Below, in pieces: positions 6,424 to 59,607 of a DNA stretch of 64,000 bases. Origin of the DNA: a virus. Lineage: Duplodnaviria > Caudoviricetes. A program made the translations under genes and the position numbers. The notes below the pieces were generated by a model, which saw only the letters and a program-made list of their open reading frames with translations, was not told the origin of the DNA and searched no databases. Each line of letters begins with the position of its first letter. The stretch's first letter is position 1. The stretch lies in IMG/VR virus record IMGVR_UViG_3300014204_000124, positions 32,001 to 96,000 of that record; one strand, 5' to 3'.

Positions 6424-6486
6424 TTGACTTCTCCGGTGAGCTGATTATGCTGTAAGAGTCTGGTAGAGGAACCGGACATTGACAGC
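6424..6486 (+). promoter_or_regulatory. Repeated promoter-hairpin-TGACAGC element, copy 1
   Basis: TTGACT-N16-TATGCTGTAAG; hairpin GTCTGGT-AGAGGA-ACCGGAC; TTGACAGC; RBS GGAGG. Confidence 0.85.
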
Positions 6487-6500
6487 TTTCGGAGGACATC

Positions 6501-6731
6501 ATGTATGAAGTAGAAAATCTGAAGACTGGGGAATGTCGAGTCTCCTTCACGCTAAAGGATGCGAGGGAGATCGCCAGAGGCAAGACTCACTACGCGATAT
6601 GGGAAGGGGAGCTGGATGAGTTGGATGACGGAGGGTTCTATGGGAATCGTCGTGTGGAGCTTTGCGATCCTTACGAGGGAGACGACGACAGAGTGAAGCA
6701 GGCGTTGGGCCAGTCCGATTCAGTTCGATAA
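6501..6731 (+). CDS. Hypothetical early protein
   Basis: GGAGG RBS, first gene after the promoter. Confidence 0.7.
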   Translation: MYEVENLKTGECRVSFTLKDAREIARGKTHYAIWEGELDELDDGGFYGNRRVELCDPYEGDDDRVKQALGQSDSVR

Positions 6732-6747
6732 CAGCTAGGAGGATATT

Positions 6748-6951
6748 ATGAACAGAGAAATCAGAAATGCTTCTCCCAAGATCCTTCATGCTTTGCGTGC
6801 GTTGGATGCTTCGGAGCATACCGGATACAACGCATTGATCCCGGAGGGCCGTGAGAAGGCTGCGTGGGAACTGCTTTGCAGTGACCCGTGTGTGGTTCAA
6901 GTCGAGGCGATCTTCTACGGAGAGTTGTCTGACTCTGCGATGATGGGGTGA
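6748..6951 (+). CDS. Hypothetical protein
   Basis: AGGAGG RBS. Confidence 0.65.
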   Translation: MNREIRNASPKILHALRALDASEHTGYNALIPEGREKAAWELLCSDPCVVQVEAIFYGELSDSAMMG

Positions 6952-6954
6952 GCT

Positions 6955-7341
6955 ATGACTTTGGACGATGCGAAAAACTGGGTCGTTGAAGCGGTGCGTG
7001 CGGGCCGCTTCGGACGGGCACGCGATCTGTATAAAGAGAATTGTTTCCTGTGTGGCCGGGAAACGATTGAAGCCGTTTGGGCCACGGGTGCGATTTCGAA
7101 GCGGCAATTGAAGCGATACTTCGGCGTGAAGGTCGTTTCTCTGGATGCCGAGGACGCTGTCTGTGAGCACGGGATGTTTGCCAGCGACGTTGAATACTTG
7201 CGTCGTGAGGCGTGGTCGCATGGGATAATGTGGTCAGATGTCAAGACGATTTTTGCTGACAGTGACAGGAAAATTGCTGCGAAAGTGAAACGGTTCAACG
7301 ACAAGTTTGAACGGGAATTGCAGCGTCGTGGAATGTTCTAG
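6955..7341 (+). CDS. Hypothetical protein
   Basis: Packed ORF. Confidence 0.6.
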   Translation: MTLDDAKNWVVEAVRAGRFGRARDLYKENCFLCGRETIEAVWATGAISKRQLKRYFGVKVVSLDAEDAVCEHGMFASDVEYLRREAWSHGIMWSDVKTIFADSDRKIAAKVKRFNDKFERELQRRGMF

Positions 7342-7359
7342 TTGGCTAAGGAGAATGGA

Positions 7360-7728
7360 ATGGGGACAAATTACTACATGGAGCGAGGGGTTTGCCCTCA
7401 TTGCGACAAGTCTGAATTCGAGTTTCACATTGGCAAGTCTTCTATGGGGTGGGCGTTCACGTTACACGTCTATCCGGGGGGTGATTCTGGCTGGGCTGAT
7501 TCTCCAGAGACAAAGGGTTTCCCGCCCCGAACGTGGGAAGAGTGGAAGACAGAGTTGATGGTTCCGGGGACTCGTGTTGTTAACGAGTATGGGGATTGTG
7601 TTGCGTTCGATGAATTTGTGGAGACGGTAGAAGCCAGAGGGACTTCGTTTCGTCGGCATGATATCGGGCAATTTTGCCTGAGCCACGGGGAAGGGTCGTG
7701 GGATAATTGTACGGGGGTGTTCTCATGA
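7360..7728 (+). CDS. Conserved phage hypothetical protein (MGTNYY...HIGKSS.GW.F)
   Basis: AAGGAG RBS; recognisable phage motif and a CPHC knuckle. Confidence 0.65.
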   Translation: MGTNYYMERGVCPHCDKSEFEFHIGKSSMGWAFTLHVYPGGDSGWADSPETKGFPPRTWEEWKTELMVPGTRVVNEYGDCVAFDEFVETVEARGTSFRRHDIGQFCLSHGEGSWDNCTGVFS

Positions 7729-8993
7729 GAAAGCTCTTCATTTTGTTGTTTGTTTTGTCGTGTTCGGAGGGTGCCGAACCGGGCATGGAGGTTGACCCAA
7801 TTGAGGCTGGGATGCCGGGTGGGACTTGTTACGGGAACGGGACGTGCAATGAGGGGCTTGTTTGTAAGGCGTGGGTATGTGTGTATGCTTCGGATGTAGT
7901 GTCCGATTTGGAGGAGGTCGTCGCCCCGGACTTGGCCGAAGAGGTCTTTGTTCGGAAGGATGGGACTGAGGAAGTTGGCGACATACAGCCGAATTGCGAT
8001 TGTGGCTGGAGGGTCTGTGGGCCGGATGGTTGCGGTGGGAGTTGCGGGGATTGTGAGGGTACAGACGAGTGCGAGACGGGGCTTTGCGTTTGCCAGCCGA
8101 ACTGTGCGGGTAAGGAGTGTGGTGCCGATGGGTGCGGGGGAAGTTGCGGAAGTTGTTCGGTAACGGAGTTATGTGATACGGAGATTTGTGTTCCTGTGTG
8201 TGACATCAATGTGTGTGGGCCGAACGGGATGGGGGGGAGTTGTGGGGTGTGCGAGTATGAATGGGAAGAGTGTATTGAAGGGCAATGTGAAGTATACCCG
8301 TCTCCGGTGATTTGGGTTTCGATACCGGGCGGGTCGTTTGAAATGGGGTGTTCGCCGGGGGATACATTCTGCCAGGATGATGAGTATCCGGTGCATGTAG
8401 TGAACATATCATCGTTTGAGATGCAGGCGGCTGAGGTGACTGTGTGGCAATGGGTTTCCGTTTTTGGAACGGTGCCGGTCTGTCCTGGTCAAGGGACGGA
8501 TTCTGCGTACCCTGCGGGGTGTGCGACTTGGGAGAAGGCGGTTGAGTATTGTGAGGCGATTGGAGGCCGTTTACCGACTGAGGCTGAGTGGGAATATGCG
8601 GCACGGGGCGGGACGACGACGAGGTTCTACTGCGGCGATGATCCTGCGTGCGTGTACGATATTGGATGGGGGCGGTGGAATGCGCCGCATGGTGCTACTC
8701 AGAAGGTAATGGGGAAGTTGCCGAATGCTTATGGTTTGTACGATATGATTGGGAATGTTCGGGAGTGGACGGCTGATTACTATGGGCCGTACAATGTTTG
8801 GGAGCAGTATGATCCCAAGGGTCCGAGTGAGGGGGAGCATCGTGTTTCGAGGGGTGGTTCAGCGGCGGAAGGGACTACTGGGGTATCCAAAACTGTTCTG
8901 ATGAGTATATCGACTAGGCTTCCATTGTCCGTGGGACAGGGCTACCATCCCATAGCAAGTATGTGGCAGGGATTCCGCTGCGTGAGGGATTGA
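7725..8993 (+). CDS. Lipoprotein with Cys-rich repeats and a C-terminal FGE/SUMF1 (C-type-lectin fold) domain
   Basis: Lipobox VLSC; three CGxDGCGGSCG-type repeats; RLPTEAEWEYAARGG, NAYGLYDMIGNVREW, RGGS, GFRC. Confidence 0.9.
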   Translation: MRKLFILLFVLSCSEGAEPGMEVDPIEAGMPGGTCYGNGTCNEGLVCKAWVCVYASDVVSDLEEVVAPDLAEEVFVRKDGTEEVGDIQPNCDCGWRVCGPDGCGGSCGDCEGTDECETGLCVCQPNCAGKECGADGCGGSCGSCSVTELCDTEICVPVCDINVCGPNGMGGSCGVCEYEWEECIEGQCEVYPSPVIWVSIPGGSFEMGCSPGDTFCQDDEYPVHVVNISSFEMQAAEVTVWQWVSVFGTVPVCPGQGTDSAYPAGCATWEKAVEYCEAIGGRLPTEAEWEYAARGGTTTRFYCGDDPACVYDIGWGRWNAPHGATQKVMGKLPNAYGLYDMIGNVREWTADYYGPYNVWEQYDPKGPSEGEHRVSRGGSAAEGTTGVSKTVLMSISTRLPLSVGQGYHPIASMWQGFRCVRD

Positions 8994-8994
8994 T

Positions 8995-9258
8995 ATGGAA
9001 AGACTTGAAGAAATCATGAAGTCATTTGCCGAGGAAGTGACGGCGGAGTTGAGGCACAAGGAGTTGCTGGAGGATGATGTCCAGACGGTAGAATTCCATT
9101 TCGAGTACGACAAGGCTGGGTTTAGAAAGCTGGTCGAGTGTCGAGTTCTCCTTGGGCACCGGGGGGAGAATGGCCTTTGTCAGGGTCTGAGAAGTGAGCG
9201 GTTCAAGGTGGAGGACTTTTGGGTTGAGGAGTCGACTGTACACTACGTTGGGGACTAA
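8995..9258 (+). CDS. Hypothetical protein, paralog of 9477
   Basis: EIMKSFAEEVT vs EIVETFARDVT. Confidence 0.6.
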   Translation: MERLEEIMKSFAEEVTAELRHKELLEDDVQTVEFHFEYDKAGFRKLVECRVLLGHRGENGLCQGLRSERFKVEDFWVEESTVHYVGD

Positions 9259-9259
9259 G

Positions 9260-9475: not shown

Positions 9476-9476
9476 T

Positions 9477-10811: not shown

Positions 10812-10819
10812 GAGGGAAC

Positions 10820-11398: not shown

Positions 11399-11462
11399 TT
11401 GACATTATTCGCAGTCCGATTATGCTGTAAGGGTCCAGCAGAGGAACTGGGCATTTGACAGC
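11399..11462 (+). promoter_or_regulatory. Repeated promoter-hairpin-TGACAGC element, copy 2
   Basis: TTGACA-N16-TATGCTGTAAG; GTCCAG-CAGAGGAA-CTGGGC; TTGACAGC. Confidence 0.85.
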
Positions 11463-11477
11463 TAATGGGGGGACATC

Positions 11478-11702
11478 ATGAAATGGAGTTGTAGCGGTTC
11501 GGTTCGGGGGAGTTGCGGTATCACTCACGGGAGTTTTGCGGCGGCGTGGAAATGCTGCCAAAAGGATCACCGCTCGGTCACTAAGGGGCAGCGAGGTGGT
11601 TCGTTGACGCACAGCTATTCGGACCGTGCCCCATACCCTGTCGACGGGTGGGATGATGCGGCGGAGAGTGAGCAGGCCGATTTTCTTGCGACGAGGTGGT
11701 AA
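11478..11702 (+). CDS. Hypothetical early protein (GSVRGSCG..H motif)
   Basis: First ORF after the promoter. Confidence 0.6.
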   Translation: MKWSCSGSVRGSCGITHGSFAAAWKCCQKDHRSVTKGQRGGSLTHSYSDRAPYPVDGWDDAAESEQADFLATRW

Positions 11703-16271: not shown

Positions 16272-16335
16272 TTGACTTCCGGCCCGCTTCGATTATGCTG
16301 TAAGAGTGGCAAGCGAGGGTGCTTGCCGTGACAGC
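16272..16335 (+). promoter_or_regulatory. Repeated promoter-hairpin-TGACAGC element, copy 3
   Basis: TTGACT-N16-TATGCTGTAAG; GGCAAGC-GAGGGT-GCTTGCC; TGACAGC. Confidence 0.85.
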
Positions 16336-16352
16336 AACTGAGGGGGTGTATC

Positions 16353-16625
16353 ATGCGGATTGACACAACGAAATTCGGGGACTTGACGGGGTGCATGGAA
16401 GGGATGCTTCGCAGGATCACGAACGGGGAACATCGTGAGACAGCCTTGAGCCAGGAGGCGATGAGTCTTGAGGCAGAAATGAACGCGAATAACAAGGACA
16501 AGCCAGACTGCCTTGTCTCGTTCGAGGAGTGCAGACAAGCGATTGCCCAGTGGTGGGAAGTCGAGGAAGACGAGCGGTCCGATTCTGAGGCGTCTCGGAT
16601 GATGGATGAAGAAACCCAGTTTTAG
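16353..16625 (+). CDS. Hypothetical early protein
   Basis: First ORF after the promoter. Confidence 0.65.
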   Translation: MRIDTTKFGDLTGCMEGMLRRITNGEHRETALSQEAMSLEAEMNANNKDKPDCLVSFEECRQAIAQWWEVEEDERSDSEASRMMDEETQF

Positions 16626-18117: not shown

Positions 18118-18392
18118 ACGGTGAATTTGACGATATGGGTTATGAGTCTGACGATGATGGCGTCAAACTGAATCGTTGGGATCTGGCAGCGTTTCGTCGG
18201 CATGTTCGGGGACTGAACAAGGTGTTGGCGGATATCCGGGGATACTGTCCAGAAGCCAACTTCTATCTCGCATGTGATTCTTTGCACGTAATGTCAGGAC
18301 AGTCGCATGTTGGCCATACTGGAGAGAAGGCTTGCCAGAAGAACAGCATTGTCAGCGAGAGTCTTTTCCATTCTGGTGGTGGAGATTGGTAG
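18114..18392 (+). CDS. Conserved phage hypothetical protein ending in GGDW
   Basis: GAGGAG RBS; ..PEANFYL...GGGDW pattern. Confidence 0.65.
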   Translation: MNGEFDDMGYESDDDGVKLNRWDLAAFRRHVRGLNKVLADIRGYCPEANFYLACDSLHVMSGQSHVGHTGEKACQKNSIVSESLFHSGGGDW

Positions 18393-18413: not shown

Positions 18414-18923
18414 ATGAAAGGGTTGACAGTGATACAGCCGTGGGCATGGCTCATAGCGAACGGGAAGAAGCTGATTGAGACGAGGACGTGGTCGACGGAC
18501 TACCGAGGGCCGCTTCTGATTCATGCGGGGAAGAGATTTGGGAGCGAGGAATCGTATGTTTGCCATTGTTTCCGGGGCACCTATATGCGTTCTTCTCCTG
18601 TGCCTGAGAGTCAAAGGGTTCCTGTACCGTATGATCTGGAGCTTGGGGCGGTGGTCGCTGTTGCCGAACTGGCTGGGTGCCGGTTGTTGCGAGAAGATGG
18701 TCTAAGGTCTGCCGCCGGGTTCTTGGGTGTGGAAGGGGAAGTCCCTGAATACGTCGCAAGGTTCTTTCGCCACTACCATGGGTTTCCCCGGCTTTATGCG
18801 TGGGTGTTGAATGATGTTCGGAAGCTGGAGAACCCAGTCGTGTGCCGGGGGTTGCAGAAATTGTGGACGCCATCGGAAGATGTTTTGGCGAGGGTCAACG
18901 AACAGTTGCAGAAAAATTCTTGA
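18414..18923 (+). CDS. ASCH domain protein
   Basis: LTV.QPWA.LI..G.K.IETR.W.T.YRG.LLIHAG; RG.QKLW. Confidence 0.9.
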   Translation: MKGLTVIQPWAWLIANGKKLIETRTWSTDYRGPLLIHAGKRFGSEESYVCHCFRGTYMRSSPVPESQRVPVPYDLELGAVVAVAELAGCRLLREDGLRSAAGFLGVEGEVPEYVARFFRHYHGFPRLYAWVLNDVRKLENPVVCRGLQKLWTPSEDVLARVNEQLQKNS

Positions 18924-18983
18924 CAATCCCGCCCCCTTGATTATACTGTAAGGGAATTGAGGCGATAGAGCCTAACTGACAGC
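18920..18983 (+). promoter_or_regulatory. Repeated promoter-hairpin-TGACAGC element, copy 4
   Basis: TTGACA-N16-TATACTGTAAG; TT(G)AGGC-GATAGA-GCCTAA; TGACAGC. Confidence 0.85.
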
Positions 18984-18993
18984 GAGGGGAACG

Positions 18994-19293
18994 ATGATAA
19001 CTAGAAGCGAGGTGGTCACGTTTTTGAATGTTCTGCGTGAGGACGGAACCCACGTTGAGGAGTTGCAGGATGCGCCGTGCGGTGCCGCTGTTGCGTCTGT
19101 GGGGGGAGGGAGACGTTGGTTGTTTCTCCCTGAGAGGGTAATCGGTGACACGGGGGAGGTTACGGAAGGGTTTTCGTCGGATTTGTGGCCCGTGACAAAT
19201 TGTGGCCACAACCGGCCTGGGTGTAGAAAAGTTGGTTGTCCGGCGGTGGAAGACCAGGAATGGGCTGCCGCTCAAGATGGGGGTGATAAATGA
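18994..19293 (+). CDS. Hypothetical early protein
   Basis: First ORF after the promoter. Confidence 0.6.
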   Translation: MITRSEVVTFLNVLREDGTHVEELQDAPCGAAVASVGGGRRWLFLPERVIGDTGEVTEGFSSDLWPVTNCGHNRPGCRKVGCPAVEDQEWAAAQDGGDK

Positions 19294-22127: not shown

Positions 22128-22416
22128 GGTCTTGTGTTGCTACGAGAGTGAGATAGGTGACCCTGCTGCCTGGAAGGAAGTTGGCGACGTTGACGAAGAC
22201 TGTTCGGAGCGGTGGGCAGTTTCAGATTTCTGCGCAGAGGAGCTGATACGCAGGAACATAGCGGAATGGAAGTTCGACTCGGTGGTGGCCGTGTCTTTGG
22301 ACGGCGGGCAGACGTGGGCGAAGTTCGATTGTTATTACACAGAGGAATGTTGCCCAGACTATAGTGACTGCTGGTGGGCGCTTGAGGCGGAGCGGGTGGC
22401 CGAGAATCGTCCTTGA
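22120..22416 (+). CDS. Hypothetical acidic protein
   Basis: GGAG RBS. Confidence 0.6.
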   Translation: MSKVLCCYESEIGDPAAWKEVGDVDEDCSERWAVSDFCAEELIRRNIAEWKFDSVVAVSLDGGQTWAKFDCYYTEECCPDYSDCWWALEAERVAENRP

Positions 22417-24821: not shown

Positions 24822-25252
24822 TGATGAATAGGTTCGATGTTGTAGCCGAGAAGTTCGAGGCGTTGTGTCGGCAGTACGCCATGCCTGTTCCGAGGGTCGT
24901 GCCGTCGTTGGCGACTGACCCGTGCGACTTCACGTCGGCAGAAGAGGTTCGGTTGAACGTGGAAGCTGCTGGGGAGATTGACGCTGACTACCATGCGAGG
25001 CATGTGTTCGGGCATTACCTATGTGATCTCCACTGTTCGGAGCCGAGCGGGAATCAGGATTGGGCAGACCCGATTGCCGATCTGATAGCGCAGTGGACGA
25101 CGAGCCATGATTCGATGGTCCGTTTGACCAGAGTATTCGAAGGGGCACGGTCATGTTCATCATCGGGAAGCATTGTAAGGATGTCCCTGGTGCAACCGAT
25201 GTCAGAAGGGGCGAATTTGGCATTTTGGCATGAGGGAAAGGAAGATGATTGA
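24818..25252 (+). CDS. Hypothetical protein with His cluster
   Basis: GGAGGA RBS; HARHVFGH. Confidence 0.55.
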   Translation: MMMNRFDVVAEKFEALCRQYAMPVPRVVPSLATDPCDFTSAEEVRLNVEAAGEIDADYHARHVFGHYLCDLHCSEPSGNQDWADPIADLIAQWTTSHDSMVRLTRVFEGARSCSSSGSIVRMSLVQPMSEGANLAFWHEGKEDD

Positions 25253-25574
25253 GGTAGGTCAGAAGCTATGGTTCGTGCCGTACGAGCCGCACAGGAATCC
25301 ACCGTTTGAGGTGGAGGTGGTCAAGGTCGGAAGGCGGTATGTCACGGTGAGTCGGTGGGAAGGCGACACCAACTTATTGAAACTGGAGAAGGATTCTCTC
25401 AGGCAGGCAGGTAGTGCCGGAAGCAAGGCATACGTGAGCAGGGGCGCGTATGATGATTGGGTTGCCTGCGAGCGTGCGTGGAGTATGTTGCGGGAAGCGG
25501 TATGCTGGTCAAGACCAGAGAGTGTTACGATGGACCGGATCATGGGAGCTTTGGCCTTGCTTCGGGGTGAATAA
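25245..25574 (+). CDS. Hypothetical phage protein with SH3-like N-terminus
   Basis: EVGQKLW...VVKVGRRY motif. Confidence 0.6.
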   Translation: MIEVGQKLWFVPYEPHRNPPFEVEVVKVGRRYVTVSRWEGDTNLLKLEKDSLRQAGSAGSKAYVSRGAYDDWVACERAWSMLREAVCWSRPESVTMDRIMGALALLRGE

Positions 25575-25807
25575 TGGGAGCCATGAGGGTGCGTGGGAGA
25601 AGATTCGTTGTGTGTGACACTGCCGGGATGTTCCGGGGGTGTGCCAAATGTGAGTTTTCTGCTCCTCAATGGAAGGAGGCATTCTGGGCTCCTCCGAATA
25701 GGGCATATGATGTTTGGCATTCAGGGAGGATGCAGTGCCCGTTTGGGCGAGAGATTGGATGTTATCTAGCTGTCAGGCTTTTCGAAGTCTCAGAAATAAA
25801 TTCTTGA
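25574..25807 (+). CDS. Hypothetical Cys-containing protein
   Basis: TAATG overlap. Confidence 0.5.
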   Translation: MGAMRVRGRRFVVCDTAGMFRGCAKCEFSAPQWKEAFWAPPNRAYDVWHSGRMQCPFGREIGCYLAVRLFEVSEINS

Positions 25808-25866
25808 CATTATCCGCAGTCCGATTATGCTGTAAGGGTCCAGCAGAGGAACTGGGCATTGACAGC
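25804..25866 (+). promoter_or_regulatory. Repeated promoter-hairpin-TGACAGC element, copy 5 (near-identical to copy 2)
   Basis: About 85-bp direct repeat with 11388-11474; 1 substitution and 2 single-base indels. Confidence 0.9.
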
Positions 25867-25880
25867 TAATGGGGGACGAG

Positions 25881-35527: not shown

Positions 35528-35589
35528 TTGACATTTCCCCTCTCCCCGATTATGCTGTAAGGGTTCGTTACCGAACCGGAGGTTACAGT
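35528..35589 (+). promoter_or_regulatory. Repeated promoter element, copy 6 (variant)
   Basis: TTGACA-N17-TATGCTGTAAG; GGTTCG-TTAC-CGAACC; GGAGG; TTACAGT complementary to GCTGTAA. Confidence 0.8.
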
Positions 35590-38167
35590 GGGGCACGTTA
35601 TCGATTTATTCGGTGTTTTGGGGGGACAGAGGGAAGATGAGCGTGAGCGGAATATGGCGAAGTTTGCCATTCCCGTAGAGTCTCCCCGTCCGAAACCTGC
35701 TCCCATGCCTGAGAGGCCGGGGTTTCGGCCCGATGGCGTCTGGATTGAGGGTAACGAGATTGTGGTGAAGGCTGCGTACAATCCTGATTCGCTAGCGCCT
35801 GCGCGAGACATTGTTGGGCGGCGCTGGGATTCGGCTGCGAAAGTGACCCGGTTTCCACTATCTTCGAGGGACGCTGTTCGGGCCTGGGTGACACGCTTTT
35901 GGCCCAAGTTGAGTGTGAAGGCACTTGACACAATCGGGGCCGTAGAGCCGAGGATCGAAGTCAGGGAAAACGGGGCATTTCTGTATATTAAGACGCCTTA
36001 TGCGAAGGCATTTGTGGATGGGATGCACGAGCTTCCAGATTGTGAGTATCAGCGTGACGGGTCGAAGGAATGGAAAGTTCCGAGGGACAGAGTTGCGCAG
36101 CTTGCGCAGCTTGCGGAGCGGGTGTACGGGGCGAAGTCGAAGGTTTTGGAAGCCGTTGTTCGGGAGAGTCAAGAGAAGCTGGCTCTGGCCACGGCAGTCA
36201 AGGCAAGCGAGACGATTGAACTGCCCGGCGGGACACTATTTCCATTCCAGGTTGCCGGAGTACAGTTCATAGAAAAGAACAAGTACGCTCTTATAGCGGA
36301 TGAAATGGGCTGCATTGACGGAGACGCTGTAATCAGTTATAGCCGTGCCAGCGTAACTCGCAAATGCACGCTTGCAGAGTTGTATGTGAAGTTCAACCGT
36401 GGCCGTTTCCAAGACGGAATCCCGACTTTTGTGAAGTCTATGTGCGATGGGATTTTGAAGTTGAACCGGGTCGTTTCGGTGCTTGACAAGGGGACTCGCC
36501 CGGTTGTTTTGTTGACACTGGAGAGTGGGAAGACGTTGCGACTGACTCCCGATCATGAAGTTGCCGTGTCTCTCACGGAATTTGCAAGAGTGGACTCGTT
36601 GTCCCCAGGGGACATTGTCTTGACAAAACTCAAAGAAGGCAAGTTCGTTGACAGGGAAGGGGGCACGGCGGGAACTGGGGGCAAGATTGTTTTTATACCG
36701 AAAGAAGATCGTGTTGTTTCAGTCCGAGACGACGGTGTCGCCCATGTTTACGATATCGTGATGGCAGATCCGTACAGAAATTTCGTTGCCGGGGGAGTTG
36801 TCGTTCACAATTGCGGGAAAACGGTCCAGTCAATCGCATACATGTACAGGAATCCCCAGAGTCTTCCGGCGATTGTCGTGTGTCCTGCTAGTGTGAAGGA
36901 AAACTGGAGGCGTGAGATTGAGCATTGGGGTGGAGGCAAGTTGAGTGTGGCGATTGCGGTGCCGAAGAGTTTGGATGGGCAACTTGCAATGAATCCGCCG
37001 AACGTCTTGATCATCAACTACGATCAACTTGGGAAGCTAGTTCTTGAAGACGAGGACATTGTCACGGGGAAGTCAAAACTTTCGGTGCGGCCCAGCGTGT
37101 TGAGGTGGGGGCCGAAGCTAGTCGTGTTCGACGAGGCTCATTATCTCAAGAATTCGAAAGCGAAGCGGAGCAAGGCAGCGGGTGCTATTGCCGAGTTGAC
37201 GGGGCGTCGGGTGATTGAGCTGACAGGGACTCCGGTATTGAATAGGCCGGAAGAATTGTGGCATTTGCTTCACTTGATAGACCCGGAAGCGTGGGGAAGC
37301 GAGAGCAAGTTCAAGTACCGATATTGCGACTGGGAAAAGGCTTGGCACGGTCACGCCGTACGCGTGGGGGCGCAGCGCCTGGACGAGTTGCACAGTCGGG
37401 TGACGGGGCATTACATGGTCCGGCGCTTGAAGAAGGATGTGCTGAAGGAATTGCCAGACAAGATTCGTTCCTGCGTTCCGTTGTGTCTGGAGCCAGCGTT
37501 TGTCGCGGCGTATCGGAAATTGTTTGACAAAACGGCAGCGAAGATCCTTTCGGAGACGGGCGGGCACTTCTCTGCACAGAACTTGGCAGTGGTGAAGGCC
37601 GCTGTAAACACGTTGCGGCAGGAAATTGGGTTGTTGAAAGCCCCCCTCGCGGCAGCGTGGGTTCAAGAGGCTTTGGAGAGCACGGACAAGGTTGTGATTT
37701 TCTCATATCATCATGCGGTGACGGACAAGATCGTCGAGGTGTTGTTGCAGGCCGGGGTGACTGTAGCGAGGATGGACGGGCGCGATTCGTTGGAGAGCAG
37801 ACAGATTGCTGTTGATGCGTTCCAGAACGGGAAATTACAGGTTTTGGCTTGCGGTATCTTGGCAGCGGGTGTTGGCCTGAATCTTACGGCTGCGGATCAA
37901 GTGGTGTTTGCCGAGCGTGCCTGGAGACCGGCGGACCACGAACAAGCGGAAGATCGACTTCACAGAATCGGGCAGAAACGGTGTGTGAATGTGTGGTTTT
38001 TGGATGCCGAGGGGACGATAGACGAGGATGTTCGGGACTTACAGCGCGTGAAGCGAGAGGCTATTTCGCAAACGATAGATGGCGGTGATTCGAGCCATGG
38101 GATGGAAGAGTCACTGGCTGTTCAAGTAGCGTTGCGCATGTTGCGCAGATTCCAAGAGAAGGGGTGA
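35588..38167 (+). CDS. SNF2-family helicase with N-terminal HARP-like domains and an intein
   Basis: ADEMG[intein]CGKT, VCPAS, INYD, DEAH, LTGTP..N, RRLK, G.GLNLT, QAEDR.HRIGQ. Confidence 0.92.
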   Translation: MGHVIDLFGVLGGQREDERERNMAKFAIPVESPRPKPAPMPERPGFRPDGVWIEGNEIVVKAAYNPDSLAPARDIVGRRWDSAAKVTRFPLSSRDAVRAWVTRFWPKLSVKALDTIGAVEPRIEVRENGAFLYIKTPYAKAFVDGMHELPDCEYQRDGSKEWKVPRDRVAQLAQLAERVYGAKSKVLEAVVRESQEKLALATAVKASETIELPGGTLFPFQVAGVQFIEKNKYALIADEMGCIDGDAVISYSRASVTRKCTLAELYVKFNRGRFQDGIPTFVKSMCDGILKLNRVVSVLDKGTRPVVLLTLESGKTLRLTPDHEVAVSLTEFARVDSLSPGDIVLTKLKEGKFVDREGGTAGTGGKIVFIPKEDRVVSVRDDGVAHVYDIVMADPYRNFVAGGVVVHNCGKTVQSIAYMYRNPQSLPAIVVCPASVKENWRREIEHWGGGKLSVAIAVPKSLDGQLAMNPPNVLIINYDQLGKLVLEDEDIVTGKSKLSVRPSVLRWGPKLVVFDEAHYLKNSKAKRSKAAGAIAELTGRRVIELTGTPVLNRPEELWHLLHLIDPEAWGSESKFKYRYCDWEKAWHGHAVRVGAQRLDELHSRVTGHYMVRRLKKDVLKELPDKIRSCVPLCLEPAFVAAYRKLFDKTAAKILSETGGHFSAQNLAVVKAAVNTLRQEIGLLKAPLAAAWVQEALESTDKVVIFSYHHAVTDKIVEVLLQAGVTVARMDGRDSLESRQIAVDAFQNGKLQVLACGILAAGVGLNLTAADQVVFAERAWRPADHEQAEDRLHRIGQKRCVNVWFLDAEGTIDEDVRDLQRVKREAISQTIDGGDSSHGMEESLAVQVALRMLRRFQEKG
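36311..36811 (+). mobile_element. Mini-intein (167 aa) in Walker A of the SNF2 helicase
   Basis: C1 CIDGDA; block B LRLTPDH; block F VYDI; C-terminal VVVHN followed by Cys+1; no LAGLIDADG. Confidence 0.9.
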
Positions 38168-40021: not shown

Positions 40022-40086
40022 TTGACTTCTCCGGTGAGTCGATTATGCTGTAAGGGAGTTGGCGAGTTGCTGGCTCGTTTGACAGC
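40022..40086 (+). promoter_or_regulatory. Repeated promoter-hairpin-TGACAGC element, copy 7
   Basis: TTGACT-N16-TATGCTGTAAG (spacer nearly identical to copy 1); GAGTTGGC/GCTGGCTC stem with G-U pairs; TTGACAGC. Confidence 0.85.
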
Positions 40087-40101
40087 CCAAAGGAGATTCA
40101 A

Positions 40102-43529: not shown

Positions 43530-43640
43530 TTGACTTCTTTGGCCGCTGGATTATGCTGTAAGCGTCCAGTTGGAACTGGGCAGCTTACGGGAGCAACCCC
43601 GACGAGGCTAACTGGGGCCTAAACCAGATTTGGAGGAGAA
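43530..43640 (+). promoter_or_regulatory. Repeated promoter element, copy 8, with extended multi-hairpin leader
   Basis: TTGACT-N16-TATGCTGTAAGC; GTCCAGT-TGGA-ACTGGGC; GCTTACGG complementary to CTGTAAGC; two further hairpins. Confidence 0.8.
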
Positions 43641-43643
43641 ACC

Positions 43644-44696
43644 ATGAGTAGCGGTATACTTGAAAACGATACGATCGCTTGGTGGGGGAAAATGCCCTGG
43701 CACAAGTTAGGGACTCCTATCCCGGAGTTACTTCCCGCTAGGGAGATGATCATCATGGCTGGCTTAGACTGGCAAGTGGAAAAGTGGCCGCTCGTGGCTA
43801 CCGAGAAATTCGGGGCCGGGGCTTCGGACGCTGCGAAGGAAGTCGTGTTGGGCCAGCGTGCCCCGATTATCACGACGCTCCAGAATGAGGTTGCGACGAT
43901 TCGCCGTTTGGGCGATGGAACGGCGTTGGCTCTGGGCGTGGTTGGAAAGGGTTACACGCCCGTCCAGAACGTTGAAGCGTTCGATTTCCTTGACGGGTTG
44001 GCCGAAGAGGGCCGTGTCAAGTTCGAAGTCGCTGGGTCGCTCAACAACGGAGCGAGAGTCTGGGCACTGGCGAAAGTGGGCAGTTTCTCCATTCCGGGGA
44101 CGGAAGACGAGTCGCTGCAATACTTGCTTTTGTGCAACGATCACGCCGGGAAGATGGCTATGCGGGCGTTTTTCACGACAGTTCGTGTTGTGTGCGCAAA
44201 CACGATGAACATTGCGTTGTCGAAGGGCCGTGGCGAAGGCGTTACGATTCGGCACTGCGGGGATGTGCGGGTCAAACTGCAAGAAGCGCAGCGAGTTCTG
44301 GCCGCGTCGAGCGATGTGTTTGTCGACTGGCAGGCGAAGGCAGAGTTGTTGGCCCGCAAGCAGTTGAACGATGCGGTTCTCCAGCAAGTCTGGCTTTCGT
44401 TGATGCCAGATCCGAAACCGAAGAAAGACGACAAGGGCAACGAGATCCCGGTGTCGAATTCGAGGGCGAAGGGTGTGCGGGCCGAACTGACTCGGTTGTT
44501 CGACGAGGGCAAGGGCAACGAACTTCGCGGCGTCAAGGGTACGGCGTGGGCAGCGTTGAACGCGGTGACTGAGTTCATCGATCATGGTCGCAACGAGGCC
44601 GGGGCTCAGGACAAGAGATTAGCGTCAGCATGGTTTGGGCAAGGTGCTCAGATCAAACAGGACGCTGCTGATTTCCTCTTCCAGGCTGCTGTGTAG
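43644..44696 (+). CDS. DUF932 (phage/plasmid TIGR03299-like) protein
   Basis: PWH.LG, AGLDW.V, LG.VG..Y.P.QN.EAF, AGSL..G..VW, VRVVCANT, GTAWAA.NAVTE..DH. Confidence 0.9.
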   Translation: MSSGILENDTIAWWGKMPWHKLGTPIPELLPAREMIIMAGLDWQVEKWPLVATEKFGAGASDAAKEVVLGQRAPIITTLQNEVATIRRLGDGTALALGVVGKGYTPVQNVEAFDFLDGLAEEGRVKFEVAGSLNNGARVWALAKVGSFSIPGTEDESLQYLLLCNDHAGKMAMRAFFTTVRVVCANTMNIALSKGRGEGVTIRHCGDVRVKLQEAQRVLAASSDVFVDWQAKAELLARKQLNDAVLQQVWLSLMPDPKPKKDDKGNEIPVSNSRAKGVRAELTRLFDEGKGNELRGVKGTAWAALNAVTEFIDHGRNEAGAQDKRLASAWFGQGAQIKQDAADFLFQAAV

Positions 44697-48862: not shown

Positions 48863-49132
48863 ATGGGAGAAGATTTTGTTGTTGTGTGGGTTGAGCAGAC
48901 GGTGAAGTTGCTGGTTGATAAACCCGAAGAGGTTCTTGTGAAAACTTATGAAGTTGCCAGTCGCACCATTATAGAGGTGACTGTGGCACAGGGGGAGACG
49001 GGAAAGATCATTGGTCGTGGAGGGGAGACGGCTTTTGCCATTCGTAAATTGTTGACTGCTTTTTCGGGGCGGGAAAAGCGTCACTACCAATTTGAGGTTA
49101 ATGACCCGACGCGAGAACGCCCTGTGATGTAG
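48863..49132 (+). CDS. khpA: KH-domain RNA-binding protein, KhpA/YlqC-like
   Basis: VK.LVDKPEEV.V, IEV.V...ETGKIIGRGG.T..AIR.LL. Confidence 0.85.
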   Translation: MGEDFVVVWVEQTVKLLVDKPEEVLVKTYEVASRTIIEVTVAQGETGKIIGRGGETAFAIRKLLTAFSGREKRHYQFEVNDPTRERPVM

Positions 49133-49164: not shown

Positions 49165-49230
49165 TTGACTATATTCCAAACCCGATTATGCTGTATTCGA
49201 GTTCGCTGGTATGCGACTATTGCTGACAGC
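49165..49230 (+). promoter_or_regulatory. Repeated promoter-hairpin-TGACAGC element, copy 9
   Basis: TTGACT-N16-TATGCTGTA; AGT(T)CGC-TGGTAT-GCGACT; TGACAGC. Confidence 0.8.
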
Positions 49231-49246
49231 TTTTGCGGGGGTCGTA

Positions 49247-50506
49247 ATGAAAATTGAGTTGACACTGAGTTCCAAGTATTGCCAGAACTGGGGCGTTTGG
49301 GAAGGGCTTAGGGAATTCGCTCAGAATGGTATGGATGCCCAGGATGAGGGCTTCCCGTTCACGGTAGAGCGTAAGAATGGCAGGGTCAGGTTTTTCTCTG
49401 CCGGTGCCAGTATCACAACAGATTCCCTCTTGCTGGGGGAGAGTAAAAAAGGTACAGACGCCCGCGGGCGTTTTGGTGAGGGGTACAAAGTCGGGGCTCT
49501 TGCTCTTCTGCGGTCGGGCAAGAGGGTAACCTTGCGAACGGGGGTGGAACGGTGGAAGTTCGGGTTCCAGAATTCTAAGGCTTTTGGAGCCAAGGTATTG
49601 TGCGTTACCACATCCCAAAACAAAAGTGTGGTGGATGGTGTTGAGATAGTGGTGTCTGACGTGAGCCAGGAGGAGTGGGACGCGTTCCAGGAGCGGATAT
49701 TGCCCCCATCCGGGGAAGAGATTTTCGAGGTCCCTTATGTGGGACGGCTTTTATTGAAATCGTGTTTTCGGGGCAAGCTTTTTGTGCGTGGTATTTTTGT
49801 GCAGGGGTTGGAAGAAGGCTACAGATTTGGGTACGATCTCCCTTTGGTTTTAGATCGGGACCGCATGATAGCACGGGATTTCGATATACAGTATTCAGCT
49901 AATCGCCTGCTAGAGGCGGCTATTGTCGCTGGTGTTGTAGAAGAAGACATGGGATTTTCCATGTTGGAAAGTGAAGCACCCGAGTTCGCTCCTATTACCG
50001 AGTGGACTCCGTTTTATGAGTGTTCCCGCCGAGAAGTGGCGGGGAAAATTGGCGCATCTTTTATTGAGCGCTATGGCCAGAAAGCCGTTCCTGTTTCGGA
50101 TATGGAAATGGCAGACAATATCCGTTCTATCGGCTATGTGCCGGTCATTGTGCCCAAGGCGCTAAAAGTATATTTAGAAAATTCTTCTGTTGTTCCCCCT
50201 GCCAGGGGGCTTTTAGAGTGGGCCTTGGAGAAGGTATACTTGTATGAGGAGTTGTCAGCAAACGAGCGTTCTGTTCTGTCGTGGTGCCTAACATCATATA
50301 AGACGGCGAAGGAGAGCGCCGAACCTGTTGAAGTTGTTGATTTCCACGAGGGGGCGCTGAAGGTGCTTTCCAACGGGGGAAAAATCCTCATAGCGAGGGG
50401 GTTGTTATCGGATGCTTCTCAGTTGTTATTGCGTTTAATGAGGAACATTGATTCTGGGATTCGAGACGAGTGTTGGCTGCGTCTTGTCGTTCCAGTTGGG
50501 GTGTAG
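49247..50506 (+). CDS. GHKL-family ATPase domain protein
   Basis: REF.QN..D, LLLGES.K, G.FGEG.K.G motifs. Confidence 0.75.
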   Translation: MKIELTLSSKYCQNWGVWEGLREFAQNGMDAQDEGFPFTVERKNGRVRFFSAGASITTDSLLLGESKKGTDARGRFGEGYKVGALALLRSGKRVTLRTGVERWKFGFQNSKAFGAKVLCVTTSQNKSVVDGVEIVVSDVSQEEWDAFQERILPPSGEEIFEVPYVGRLLLKSCFRGKLFVRGIFVQGLEEGYRFGYDLPLVLDRDRMIARDFDIQYSANRLLEAAIVAGVVEEDMGFSMLESEAPEFAPITEWTPFYECSRREVAGKIGASFIERYGQKAVPVSDMEMADNIRSIGYVPVIVPKALKVYLENSSVVPPARGLLEWALEKVYLYEELSANERSVLSWCLTSYKTAKESAEPVEVVDFHEGALKVLSNGGKILIARGLLSDASQLLLRLMRNIDSGIRDECWLRLVVPVGV

Positions 50507-56430: not shown

Positions 56431-56437
56431 TTTAGGC

Positions 56438-56465
56438 TTGACTCTGTGGGGAATGGGATTATACT
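56438..56465 (+). promoter_or_regulatory. Promoter, variant of the repeated motif
   Basis: TTGACT-N16-TATACT in the context GATTATACTGCAA. Confidence 0.65.
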
Positions 56466-56491
56466 GCAATGGAGAGTAGAGGAGGGCAGAG

Positions 56492-57187
56492 ATGTCGACT
56501 TGGAGTAGGACAGGGTTTGAGTTTGTAGGTGAATTGATGCGCCTTAAGATGATGCAGAACCTACAGCCGCCCAGGCTGGTGTTGCGGAAGGGAGACGAAA
56601 AGCACTTGGTGTTTCTCGATGGTGATGGGTCTAGCGCCCCTTTTGTGACGGTAGAACATCGCAAAAAGGTGAATGGGGCATGGACGTTTCCGGTTTGCCA
56701 GAATGCCGAGATCATTCTTGCAGGCAAGGCTGATGGGTTTGTAGAGTGCTACGGATGTGACGAAGCTTCTCAGCGCCATTTTGTTGGGATGCTTACTGTC
56801 ATTGATATTGAGGGGTACGCTGTAGAGGGGAAGGAGCATCGTGGCTTGCGCCGGATATATCCTGGGGACGAAACAGCCTTGCAGAAATTGGATGAGATTC
56901 GTGTTCGGGAATGTGGTGGGGACTTAGCCGGTGCAATAATTGTAGTAAAAGAAGATATAGGTGACTGGGGGTCGGTGGGGACATCTTTTACGTTCAAAAA
57001 GAAGATTCCGAAGGGGAATTGGGCAGCCGCTGCTAAGAAGGCAGGAGGTGATATTTCTAAGAATCCTTGGGAGCCCTTCAACTATGCTTCGTTTGTGAAA
57101 TTGGTATCAAACGACACCATGAGGTCGATATGGGCGGGGAAAGTTCCCGAGTCAGGTCCGGCAACGGATGATGTCATAAAGTATTGA
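56492..57187 (+). CDS. gp32-like single-stranded DNA-binding protein
   Basis: H...C...C..C Zn ligands; OB-like strands; acidic C-terminal tail. Confidence 0.6.
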   Translation: MSTWSRTGFEFVGELMRLKMMQNLQPPRLVLRKGDEKHLVFLDGDGSSAPFVTVEHRKKVNGAWTFPVCQNAEIILAGKADGFVECYGCDEASQRHFVGMLTVIDIEGYAVEGKEHRGLRRIYPGDETALQKLDEIRVRECGGDLAGAIIVVKEDIGDWGSVGTSFTFKKKIPKGNWAAAAKKAGGDISKNPWEPFNYASFVKLVSNDTMRSIWAGKVPESGPATDDVIKY

Positions 57188-57194
57188 GGTCGTC

Positions 57195-57395
57195 ATGGTC
57201 GTTATGGCTGTACTATTGGTATTGACTCTTTTGGGGCAAGTGAATGTGGTCTTGTATTTGATTCGTTTGGATAGAAGAGTGGCCAGGGTCGAGGCGATGC
57301 ACGGGCGGTTGAACGCGTTGTGCGATGCGTACGGGATTGAGGAGGACGGGGTTGTTCCTGTCGTCCTGTCACGGATAGGTGATGAAGATGAGTGA
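57195..57395 (+). CDS. Small membrane protein
   Basis: GAGG RBS; N-terminal TM. Confidence 0.55.
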   Translation: MVVMAVLLVLTLLGQVNVVLYLIRLDRRVARVEAMHGRLNALCDAYGIEEDGVVPVVLSRIGDEDE

Positions 57396-57642
57396 AGAGA
57401 AGAAGGTGCGGGCTGGTAGTAAGGCTCTGGGTTGGGGCATGTTTGTCAGTTTGAATGGTAATGTTGTAGAAACAAGGATGGTTGGTCGGGCCTGTTCTAC
57501 GGAGGACGTTCTTGCCGTGGTCAAGGAAAGCCTTGTGGCCAAAGGGAAGGAGTCTGAGTTTTACGGAGCTGTCATAGAGGTGTTCGCTATAAAGGCACGC
57601 CGAACTCCCGTGGTGGAGAGTAAGACGGTGGTGACGCTATGA
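57388..57642 (+). CDS. Hypothetical protein
   Basis: Packed ORF. Confidence 0.55.
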   Translation: MSEEKKVRAGSKALGWGMFVSLNGNVVETRMVGRACSTEDVLAVVKESLVAKGKESEFYGAVIEVFAIKARRTPVVESKTVVTL

Positions 57643-58079
57643 CACTCAAGATAGGTTCTCTTGTTTTCGGTATTGCGAGGCGTCAGAGCAATGTTCCGCC
57701 GCTCTTTGTAGTGCATAGAGGGCTTGTGAAGGGGGTGGATGCGAAGGCTGGCATGGTAGAAATTGACGATGGCGGGAAGTCTCTTGTTATCGTGATGCTG
57801 CGGCATGTGTATCTTGCCGAGGCGAAGGCTCGGGCGGTAGTGAAGGCTCTGTCGTTGGAAGGTCACAAGGCTTTTCAATTGGCAAATGCGGAGGCTCCTG
57901 ATAAGGCACCTGAGCGTATGGTAGATATGTGGCAGCGGCAGGTGGAACTTGTAGAGTCGGGGAAGATTCCCGTTGTAGGATACTACGATGAAACCGGGAA
58001 ATTGTTTTCTCCGCGACAAAGGCGAAAGCTCCAGCGGCAGATGCGCGAGATTTTCGGCAAGGGGGTTGGCGACCGGTGA
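57639..58079 (+). CDS. Hypothetical protein
   Basis: ATGA overlap. Confidence 0.55.
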   Translation: MTLKIGSLVFGIARRQSNVPPLFVVHRGLVKGVDAKAGMVEIDDGGKSLVIVMLRHVYLAEAKARAVVKALSLEGHKAFQLANAEAPDKAPERMVDMWQRQVELVESGKIPVVGYYDETGKLFSPRQRRKLQRQMREIFGKGVGDR

Positions 58080-59578
58080 TTATTGGTAAAGACATGATGG
58101 TTATGGATCGCATGGCTTGGTTCGATAAGTCGGCGGTCTCTGATACTGAGTTGAGGAGGTTGCGGGTTCTGCTGACCAAAACGCCTAAGAGAATCGCCGA
58201 GTTTGCTATGTTCGACGACGATGACGACGATAAGGAGGTCGCATTGTTTGAGGAGCATGGCAGGTGGTTTGGGGTGCCGCGAGCGTATTGGGAATCAGAG
58301 CTTCGGCCCAAGATGAAGCTGAGGGAGTTCTCACGGTTCTCCGATGTTGTGGCGGTCCCGAACGATCGGTTACGGCTTTCCGGGCTGAGTAGTGACGGAC
58401 CGTACGCTGAGCAGGCGGAGATGGTTGAGACGATAGTCTCCTACTTACGGGACGGTAAGGGTGTAGGTGGCATCTTCCGAGCGGACCCAGGGTATGGGAA
58501 GACAGTCGTGGCGCTTCGGGCGATAGCAGGGCTGAAGGTCCCGACGATTGTCGTGGTTCACAAAGAGTTCCTGATGAACCAGTGGTATCGACGTATTCAG
58601 AAGTATCTACCGGATGCTAAGGTCGGGTTCATTCAGCAGGAACGGGCCGAGTTTGTTGGTTGTGACATTGTGATTGCGATGCTTCAGTCGTTAGCGCAGC
58701 GGGAGTATTGTCCAGAGTTGTTCAATTCGTTTGGATTGGTCATCTCCGATGAGTGCCATCGACTTGGAAGTTGTACGTGGGCTCCTGTGATCCGTAAGTT
58801 CCGCTCGAAGTGGCGGCTTGGATTGTCGGCCACGTTGCGTCGCAAAGACGGCATGGAAGACGTTTTCCGGTGGAATATCGGTCCGGTGATTGCCCAGGCG
58901 AAGGTAGGGTCAAAGATTCCATCGTTGAAGCGAATCAGGACCTCTGCGAAGTTGCCGTCTATGGCAAAGTTTGAGGGGAACTCCAGGGTAGCGATGACGG
59001 ACAAGGAACAGGGGAAGAGTGTCATGACCCCGACCGTGTTGCGTTACCTATGCAAAGATACGGCTCGGAATGCTGTTATTCTGGAGCAGGTGTATTTGGC
59101 GGCGACGAGTTTGAACCGGCGGAAAGTGATTGTGTTGAGTGAGCGGAAGGAGTCGCACCTTCACATTCTGCGTGGAGTGTTCGAAGATATGTGCCGCAGG
59201 GGGGGGAAGGATATCACGACATCGTTCTACTATGGTGGGAAGAGCGAGCGGGATTTAGCTTTAGCAGAGCGTGCTCAGGTGATATTCAGCACGTTTCAAA
59301 TGGTGAGTGAGGCGTTGGATATTGAGGCGCTCGACATGGTTGTTTTGGCGACACCTGTGTCAGACGTAGAACAGGCGATAGGTCGGGTTAGACGGCACTG
59401 TTTGCCGAGCGAGGAGAAGTGTGTTCTGTTGTGCCCATGGAGAGCCGGAATGTGCAAGGGTAAGCCGGAACCTATCGTTTTGGACGTGATGGACCCATTG
59501 GTGGAGAAGTGCAACAGCAAGGCTCGTTGGCGGCTTGCGTTATATAGAGAGATAGGGATGTTGGGAAAATGTCCTTGA
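58076..59578 (+). CDS. SF2 DEAD/DEAH helicase (UvsW/ResIII-like)
   Basis: PGYGKT, DECH, LGLSAT..RKDG, EALDI, EQAIGRVRR. Confidence 0.9.
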   Translation: MIIGKDMMVMDRMAWFDKSAVSDTELRRLRVLLTKTPKRIAEFAMFDDDDDDKEVALFEEHGRWFGVPRAYWESELRPKMKLREFSRFSDVVAVPNDRLRLSGLSSDGPYAEQAEMVETIVSYLRDGKGVGGIFRADPGYGKTVVALRAIAGLKVPTIVVVHKEFLMNQWYRRIQKYLPDAKVGFIQQERAEFVGCDIVIAMLQSLAQREYCPELFNSFGLVISDECHRLGSCTWAPVIRKFRSKWRLGLSATLRRKDGMEDVFRWNIGPVIAQAKVGSKIPSLKRIRTSAKLPSMAKFEGNSRVAMTDKEQGKSVMTPTVLRYLCKDTARNAVILEQVYLAATSLNRRKVIVLSERKESHLHILRGVFEDMCRRGGKDITTSFYYGGKSERDLALAERAQVIFSTFQMVSEALDIEALDMVVLATPVSDVEQAIGRVRRHCLPSEEKCVLLCPWRAGMCKGKPEPIVLDVMDPLVEKCNSKARWRLALYREIGMLGKCP

Positions 59579-59607
59579 CAATCCCGTGTTACTGATTATG
59601 CTGTAAG
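59575..59607 (+). promoter_or_regulatory. Repeated promoter, copy 10, lacking the hairpin and TGACAGC
   Basis: TTGACA-N16-TATGCTGTAAG directly followed by AGGAGG and ATG. Confidence 0.85.

Follow-up and report, generated by a model that had tools for sequence, protein, structure and literature searches.

The 64,000-nt window analysed here (bases 32001-96000 of the 129,634-bp IMG/VR virus record IMGVR_UViG_3300014204_000124, which carries direct terminal repeats) contains a multi-copy element that combines a sigma-70-family promoter, a hairpin at the predicted 5' end of the transcript and, in many copies, the heptamer TGACAGC ahead of the Shine-Dalgarno (SD) sequence. We think it probable that these elements are early-gene expression cassettes similar to PeSLs, the promoter-early stem-loop cassettes described in T4-type phages, and that they serve an uncultured, distantly T4-like myovirus. 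The heptamer partly matches the complement of the promoter's own -10 region; as a sign of a second, outer stem this match is suggestive, not established. A first-pass annotation made from the letters alone had described a ten-copy promoter cassette with a covarying hairpin, and missed both the T4-like nature of the phage and the likeness to PeSLs. Positions marked "genome" refer to the whole record (called G000 where it is compared with relatives), all others to the window.

All ten copies listed in that annotation are present at the coordinates it gave, and the list was too short: the window also holds two hairpin-less copies (4726 and 56438), one possible weak copy (48065) and, near 22410, a doubtful one. 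The whole genome has 18 good copies and one doubtful copy, which are restricted to the + strand and to the stretch from 11 to 92 kb. The copies in the window are given below. The read-through fold is the predicted structure of RNA that enters the element from upstream, computed from -15 to +36.

6424..6500, + strand: full cassette; -35 at 6424-6429, -10 at 6446-6451, hairpin at 6458-6477, TGACAGC at 6480-6486, ATG at 6501; read-through fold -18.0 kcal/mol, z -3.5.
11399..11477, + strand: full cassette; -10 at 11421-11426, hairpin at 11433-11452, TGACAGC at 11456-11462, ATG at 11478; possible outer stem extended to ATTA(T)GCTGT / ACAGCTAAT.
16272..16352, + strand: full cassette; -10 at 16294-16299, hairpin at 16308-16327 (GGCAAGC/GCTTGCC, -12.8 kcal/mol), TGACAGC at 16329-16335, ATG at 16353; read-through fold -20.4 kcal/mol, z -3.3.
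18920..18993, + strand: cassette with the -10 sequence TATACT; -10 at 18942-18947, weak 4-bp hairpin at 18960-18973, TGACAGC at 18977-18983, ATG at 18994.
25804..25880, + strand: full cassette; -10 at 25826-25831, hairpin at 25838-25857, TGACAGC at 25860-25866, ATG at 25881.
35528..35590, + strand: variant cassette with a 17-nt spacer; -10 at 35551-35556, hairpin at 35562-35577 (GGTTCG/CGAACC), TTACAGT at 35583-35589, which runs into the probable GTG start of the SNF2 gene (35588); CTGTAA/TTACAG pairable; read-through fold -12.9 kcal/mol, z -0.45, not significant.
40022..40101, + strand: full cassette; -10 at 40044-40049, hairpin at 40056-40076 (GAGTTGGC/GCTGGCTC, three G·U pairs), TGACAGC at 40080-40086, ATG at 40102; read-through fold an almost uninterrupted ~16-bp stem (-19.5 kcal/mol, z -3.4).
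43530..43643, + strand: variant cassette before the DUF932 gene; -10 at 43552-43557, hairpin at 43564-43581, GCTTAC at 43583-43588 (pairs with the discriminator GTAAGC and so prolongs the inner stem), long leader, ATG at 43644; read-through fold a ~13-bp stem with one bulge, -22.0 kcal/mol, z -3.0.
49165..49246, + strand: cassette with the discriminator GTATT in place of GTAAG; -10 at 49187-49192, weak hairpin at 49200-49218, TGACAGC at 49224-49230, ATG at 49247.
59575..59622, + strand: short-leader promoter without TGACAGC; a weak stem overlapping the SD only; ATG at 59623.
4726..4781, + strand: additional promoter copy, TTGACT-N16-TATGCT with the discriminator ATGTC, without hairpin; ATG at 4782.
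56438..56491, + strand: additional promoter copy, TTGACT-N16-TATACT-GCAAT, without hairpin; ATG at 56492.
48065: possible weak copy.
Near 22410, + strand: doubtful copy.

The pattern TTGACW-N15-18-TATRCTGTAAG has nine exact matches in the window and none in 100 shuffles of it, which bears out the earlier proposal of a sigma-70-type multi-copy promoter with an upstream A-rich tract. Over the whole genome, TTGACW-N16-TATRCT gave 17 forward matches, no reverse match and no match in the control. The column consensus reads g.aA..aaat.C-TTGAC-(14 variable)-GAT-TATGCT-GTAAg, with GTAAG as a phage-specific conserved discriminator; the spacer of the ten copies is 16 nt except at 35528 (17 nt), and in most copies 12-17 of the 23 nt upstream of the -35 are A or T, compared with an A+T content of 47% genome-wide. 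The spacers have diverged, yet GAT-TATGCT-GTAAG is kept, so that the conserved blocks are under selection and not merely shared by recent copies. We regard it as solid that the multi-copy unit is a host sigma-70-family promoter with an A-rich UP-like tract. A second promoter starting from the downstream TTGACA was rejected because, by inspection, there is no -10 at the right distance, and a single-stranded DNA (Frpo-type) promoter was rejected since the -35 never lies within a stem and the phage is a double-stranded DNA tailed phage.

All copies are intergenic or overlap the upstream stop codon, with a start codon 25-92 nt downstream; they are confined to the early region rich in ORFans, i.e. 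orphan open reading frames (ORFs), and to the replication module, and none lies in the structural module. Thirteen of the 19 copies are found at 11-58 kb, a region in which few ORFs have PHROG matches or homologues in G002, the only whole-genome relative (133.7 kb, ~50% protein identity, syntenic). In five cassettes the upstream ORF stops at the very TGA contained in the -35 sequence T-TGA-C (18921-18923, 25805-25807 and 59576-59578 in the window, genome 15146-15148 and 26516-26518), so that the coding sequence reaches straight into the promoter and leaves no room for a terminator. Terminator-like sites are few, with 10 in 20 kb against 15.5 +/- 4.2 in shuffles (Rho-dependent sites not being predictable). 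Because of this scarcity, and because the upstream stop codon often stands too close to the -35 for a terminator to fit, transcription from upstream operons is expected to read through into the cassettes.

Downstream of the -10, seven of the ten copies form a stable stem of 6-8 bp (free energy of folding -8.3 to -12.8 kcal/mol) and three have weak hairpins (18920 with 4 bp; 49165 with -6.0 kcal/mol; 59575 with -3.7 kcal/mol, overlapping the SD). The hairpin near +1 with its G-U pairs and compensatory changes, which the annotation had given for nine copies, had thus been correctly noticed. Genome-wide, a stem of 6-8 bp is present in 11-12 of the 19 copies and begins 11-14 nt downstream of the -10's first base. 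A free energy of -8.3 kcal/mol or lower within 26 nt is reached in 11 of the 19 copies as compared with 4% of random genomic windows (binomial p ~3e-11, the copies not all being independent). When the transcription start is placed by sigma-70 promoter geometry, i.e. ~7 nt after the -10, the hairpin begins 5-8 nt past the -10 and hence at about -1 to +3, both in G000 and in G002.

The stems at this position have at least seven unrelated sequences. The largest hairpin family, with seven members, has a 6-bp core without a broken pair and shows double compensatory changes at two positions; one double compensatory change separates orthologues, namely the 29.4-kb copy of G000 and the metagenome contig L073 (~77% identical). 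G·U pairs occur in most stems and A·C in none, indicating pairing in RNA of the + sense, as opposed to symmetrical pairing in DNA. In G002, hairpins of other sequences (e.g. GGTTGGC/GCCGACC) likewise stand at an offset of 11-14 nt. That the hairpin is an RNA structure at the predicted 5' end of the transcript is, in our view, solid, and its recurrence in both genomes marks the putative 5'-terminal hairpin as a trait that the early promoters of this phage group have conserved. Its most likely role would be to protect the 5' end of the early mRNA from 5'-end-dependent decay.

TGACAGC is present in seven of the ten copies and in nine genome-wide, its distance from the first base of the -10 being 34-37 nt in every case, in agreement with the earlier report of a conserved TGACAGC before the SD. 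Of 13 occurrences on the + strand, nine lie at this cassette offset and the other four inside genes. The motif is limited to hairpin-bearing copies (9/12 with a hairpin, 0/7 without) and is kept in the orthologue L073. By this distribution, TGACAGC at about +22 to +28 appears as a selected, lineage-specific leader motif. The search for a partner acting in trans was negative: all 11 GCTGTCA sites on the + strand lie within genes or in one ribosome-binding site, and no candidate resembling a small RNA was found among them. One GCTGTCA, the exact complement of TGACAGC, is located at genome 18189-18195 between the SD and the ATG of a hairpin-less cassette (promoter at 18130), probably by coincidence.

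The motif had been read as an inverted repeat of GCTGTAA in the -10/discriminator. Five contiguous pairs (GCTGT/ACAGC) are indeed available, followed by an A x G mismatch and one or two further pairs, so that the full 7-bp repeat does not hold. One cassette family lengthens the outer pairing by ATTA/TAAT. Both differences between TTACAGT and TGACAGC are compatible with pairing, as is the GCTTAC variant. The two copies without TGACAGC to which such pairing variants had been ascribed (35528 and 43530) do have them, and 59575 also lacks TGACAGC. In 9-10 copies, read-through RNA folds into composite stems that are 11-17 bp long and contain an internal loop (-17 to -22 kcal/mol, z ~-3). To assess the contribution of the promoter-derived arm, the extra folding energy given by the real 14-nt left arm was summed over the copies and compared with that of permuted arms. 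For all 19 copies of G000 this amounted to -98.8 observed versus -56 +/- 14 permuted (p 0.015), and for the nine TGACAGC copies p was 0.01. Since its 5' arm precedes the start site, the outer stem, if real, would form only on RNA arriving from upstream. Our preferred reading of TGACAGC, though with a probability clearly below even, is that it is the 3' arm of such an outer stem on read-through RNA.

Several observations weigh against the outer stem. The p value of ~0.01 is modest for a pattern noticed post hoc, and the ten other copies of G000 show no excess pairing (p 0.18). Covariation of the outer stem, whose absence was one of the two conditions under which the first-pass annotation would have given up its proposal, is not seen: the arms are nearly invariant, and RNAalifold run on a MAFFT alignment recovers the outer stem, without covariation, along with part of the inner stem. 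The stem is also absent from G002, where the left-arm permutation gave p 0.24 and 0.78 for promoter classes A and B, respectively. This relative keeps the TATGCT -10 and the 5' hairpins and has neither a leader TGACAGC nor outer pairing; the left arm can therefore be explained by promoter function alone, the same -10 being used there without a downstream complement. In copy 18920 the left arm has become ACTGT (from TATACT) while TGACAGC is unchanged, resulting in an uncompensated terminal A x C, which argues against selection for pairing alone and qualifies the earlier statement that complementarity is what is conserved. TTACAGT at 35583 is also a plain spacer between SD and start codon. A U-tract after the composite stem is missing in seven of nine copies, so the stem is not a canonical intrinsic terminator. 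For the cassette reading as a whole, the start site, the promoter strength and the read-through are predictions from the letters.

The invariance of the heptamer leads to another explanation, to which we assign a minor though real share of the probability: TGACAGC may be a single-stranded recognition site in the cassette's own mRNA for a phage or host RNA-binding protein or nuclease, its match to the promoter being coincidental. The bound factor would govern translation or decay of the first cistron, as T4 RegA or RegB do on early messages. This agrees with a 7-mer that is invariant in nine copies and in L073 while hairpins and flanks vary, and that is held at a fixed distance from both promoter (34-37 nt) and start codon (17-24 nt). 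Folding predictions moreover leave the motif largely single-stranded in the primary transcript and give it no shared partner further downstream, and it is unchanged in copy 18920, where the pairing is lost; the phage also encodes a KhpA-type KH protein and a ProQ-C-like protein. No binding protein has been identified, however, the KH gene is kept in G002, which is without the motif, and the TAAT/ATTA extension and the pairing-compatible variants are left unexplained.

Action at the DNA level, i.e. a cruciform, a split operator for a dimeric repressor, or nascent RNA pairing with the non-template strand of the open complex, had been put forward as well and is in our judgement very improbable. 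The inverted repeat is centred near +10 and its position is roughly fixed relative to the promoter, as such mechanisms would have it. The stems, however, use G·T wobbles and no A·C, so that pairing is specific to the + sense RNA, the arm spacing varies over 34-37 nt, and the variant copies pair in a different register. Operator half-sites 29-31 bp apart, as found here, are atypical. Cruciform and split operator are hence disfavoured, and the R-loop version found no support. Of the structures proposed earlier, only a stem in read-through RNA is compatible with the data.

Such a stem might be a processing site of the RNase III type that cuts read-through early transcripts once per cassette, as in T7 and SP82 early RNA, each operon segment then ending in a 3' hairpin and beginning with the same leader. 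The irregular read-through stems of 11-17 bp with an internal loop, which reach -17 to -22 kcal/mol at z ~-3 in 9-10 copies, would suit this role, as would genes that are all co-oriented and separated by fewer terminator-like sites than in shuffles. Substrates of RNase III typically comprise roughly two helical turns of duplex. The duplexes here are shorter, no phage RNase III gene was found in the Pfam scans, and the element is absent from G002; we therefore rate RNase III-type processing as unlikely.

Still lower, as quite improbable, we place the suggestion that hairpin and TGACAGC form an antitermination signal like those of nut sites or rrn operons, in which a boxB-like hairpin and a boxA-like linear motif load a factor on RNA polymerase for passage through downstream terminators. 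The bipartite layout of a hairpin followed by a conserved linear motif, the restriction of the motif to copies with a hairpin and the purine-rich nature of several loops are reminiscent of such signals, and T4 middle expression depends in part on the extension of early transcripts (PMC2988021). On the other side, Rfam returned no match to the element even at E <= 10, the terminator-like sites to be overridden are below shuffle expectation, no N-, Q- or NusG-like family occurs in 208 ORFs, and the hairpins differ too much in sequence and loop to be recognized by one RNA-binding protein.

Returning to the PeSL-like cassettes that we favour, the unit would work as follows. An A-rich UP-like tract and a sigma-70-family promoter (TTGACW, 16 nt ending in GAT, TATGCT) followed by the GTAAG discriminator, a leader, the SD and the start codon would start transcription ~7 nt past the -10, placing a 6-8-bp hairpin 0-3 nt from the 5' end in about two thirds of the copies; this 5'-terminal hairpin would shield the early mRNA from 5'-end-dependent decay. 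The 5' arm of the outer stem (GCTGT of the -10/discriminator) would be transcribed only by polymerases coming from the upstream operon. The full 40-nt structure of -17 to -22 kcal/mol could thus exist on read-through RNA only, as a PeSL-type attenuator, insulator or processing site, and the cassette's own transcripts would be unaffected by the outer stem. We tentatively propose, as a conjecture more doubtful than its contrary, that the cassette tells two origins of RNA apart: a unit of ~80 bp would serve both as a promoter with a 5'-protected message and as an origin-selective attenuator or processing site, and would insulate operons without a separate terminator. Recombination between copies would spread and reshuffle the cassettes.

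Apparent traces of such reshuffling are visible within the genome. The copies at genome 11361 and at 11399 and 25804 of the window have a common spacer (92-100%) and leader (68-97%, the value for 11399 being lowered by a 1-nt insertion), and these three near-identical cassettes precede non-paralogous genes. Copy 6424 is a mosaic: in its spacer it resembles copy 40022 (85%), in its leader the 11361/25804 family (76-79%). Promoters are located at the same gene junctions in G000 and G002 (before the DUF932 and SNF2 genes and before the 186-, 419-, 231- and 106-aa ORFs), each genome using its own promoter consensus, i.e. the cassette class has been replaced at conserved positions. A lineage-specific concerted consensus together with mosaic copies is the pattern expected from recombination between cassettes; that the mosaicism comes from one genome counts against this part of the argument.

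G002 (loci L064-L070) has two promoter classes with different discriminators, ACAAC and [GA]TG, which may be two temporal or regulatory classes. One (e.g. 7952, 9676, 13552 and 24403) combines a 5' hairpin with a box of the TTTCCCTC type upstream, a spacer of 17 nt and an [AG]TG discriminator; the other (e.g. 29732, 52594, 58272 and 64505) has a 16-nt spacer ending in GAT and an ACAAC discriminator and is without a hairpin. Further relatives were scarce. At more than 40% identity the search with the DUF932 protein returned G001/G002 only, the search for loci related to the 419-aa ORF found none, and homologue searches with two cassette-adjacent ORFs returned the query alone. The exact promoter pattern had no match in IMG/VR. 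A scan of metagenomes for the pattern gave three matches, among which L073 is the only relative; L071 and L072 were set aside as unrelated promoters. GCTGTAA-N19-27-TGACAGC gave at least 118 single matches in IMG/VR, all of which were dismissed as chance matches, none having the promoter.

The assignment of the phage is based on its genes. The + strand carries every plausible gene and is very rich in G (33.8%, with C at 19.2%). Among 208 ORFs, the Pfam scans revealed a T4-type structural module (Gp23 major capsid, Portal_T4, Phage_T4_gp19 tube, Peptidase_S77 prohead protease and T4_baseplate) and genes of replication and recombination (DnaB, primase, helicase loader, SSB, RecA and SNF2), and no sigma factor, RNA polymerase or NusG-, N- or Q-like family. 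Megablast of 10 kb of the genome against the INPHARED phages yielded zero matches. By these protein families the phage is classed as an uncultured, distantly T4-like myovirus. The structural module lies outside the window, at genome 96-129.6 kb and 0-11 kb (loci L074, L076 and L077). The T4-type late promoter TATAAATA is absent from the genome, so late transcription must rely on another signal.

The cargo described earlier for the operons was recovered by Pfam for DarA_C, DUF932, SNF2 and SSB, and the gene called 'GHKL' (49247-50506) has no Pfam match. Among the early genes (window 72-27388 and genome 1-32 kb) are the anti-defence-type families DarA_C, Anti-Pycsar Apyc1/metallo-beta-lactamase and Tad2-like (Thoeris anti-defence), and KTSC, ASCH and pyrophosphatase-like proteins are encoded there as well. 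Two further proteins are encoded next to cassettes: the KhpA/KhpB-type KH-domain (RNA-binding) protein (89 aa, window 48863-49132, E 3.9e-16, also kept in G002) directly upstream of cassette 49165, and the Phage_ProQ_C_like domain protein (109 aa, window 25245-25571, E 4.3e-14) just upstream of cassette 25804, with a second, weaker Phage_ProQ_C_like match in genome 0-32 kb. In the SNF2 helicase gene (35588-38167), residues 293-408 match Intein_splicing below threshold, the RecA-like gene (60500-61882) has two family-matching stretches ~100 residues apart, suggesting an insertion, and the late region has Intein, LAGLIDADG and HNH matches. A 422-aa protein (7725-8993) has at its C-terminus a domain of the FGE-sulfatase family (formylglycine-generating-enzyme-like; E 5.7e-40); the best homologues in bacteria are at most 48% identical and taxonomically scattered.

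If the outer stem is real, it would represent a compact design in which one element starts its own transcripts while selectively marking those derived from upstream, of interest for phage gene regulation and for synthetic insulator parts. Without it, the cassettes would still extend PeSL-type mobile cassettes to a distant, uncultured T4-like branch from a non-enteric environment, with a predicted 5'-terminal hairpin kept at early promoters across ~50% protein divergence. The finding opens no long-standing question.

Several known systems share parts of this design. Stabilizing stem-loops at the 5' end are present in the ompA leader of E. coli and in the 5' stabilizers of B. subtilis, including the SP82 early-RNA element. 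As in ompA and SP82, the hairpin here is located a few nucleotides from the (predicted) 5' end and its structure is kept while its sequence is free. The RNase III sites of T7 early RNA and the nut sites of lambda are repeated structured RNA signals at early cistrons, nut consisting of a hairpin and a linear motif. The cassettes resemble both in being repeated structured signals between or ahead of early cistrons, and nut sites also in their bipartite layout; unlike them, they have stems shorter than RNase III sites and no detected sequence or Rfam similarity or cognate factor. T4 early promoters ('uber' UP/-35/TGn/-10) carry a consensus beyond the sigma-70 elements (Hinton 2010, PMC2988021). 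The promoters described here are likewise host-polymerase promoters with an excellent -35 and -10, a UP-like tract and extra conserved positions; they differ in having no TGn, TATGCT instead of TATAAT as the -10 and a 16-nt spacer, and the extra conservation is in GAT before and GTAAG after the -10.

The closest likeness is to the PeSLs of RB49/phi1, T4/PST and KVP40/nt-1, which consist of an AT-rich tract, a strong sigma-70-like early promoter, a G-T-paired stem-loop, an SD and an ATG (Arbiol et al. 2010, PMC2839356; Comeau et al. 2014, PMC4122927). Their stem lies between the boxes, overlaps the -35 or -10, or stands just downstream of the -10; they terminate or attenuate upstream transcription and serve as recombination seams in hyperplastic regions, with cassette-bounded indels and mini-circles, and their consensus varies by phage lineage (PMC2839356; PMC4122927). 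The cassettes share with them the multi-copy arrangement of AT tract, near-consensus sigma-70 promoter, G-T stem-loop and SD/start in ORFan-rich plastic regions, the lineage-specific consensus, a stem overlapping the -10 (the composite stem of the read-through folds) or standing just downstream of it, and a phage with T4-type structural genes. Judged by the letters, the cassettes have what defines a PeSL at the sequence level, and the likeness extends that far. Unlike in PeSLs, G-run/C-run stems are absent and the stem is two-tiered, with the inner hairpin inside the cassette's own message at its 5' end and a possible outer stem to TGACAGC at +22; unlike the PeSL-bearing T4-type phages, this phage has 130 kb, direct terminal repeats and no TATAAATA late promoter. 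Promoter-hairpin cassettes are thus of a known kind, the PeSL, and what is new is the hairpin placed within the message and, with only moderate support, a possible outer stem that lies half inside and half outside it, built on a 7-base motif.

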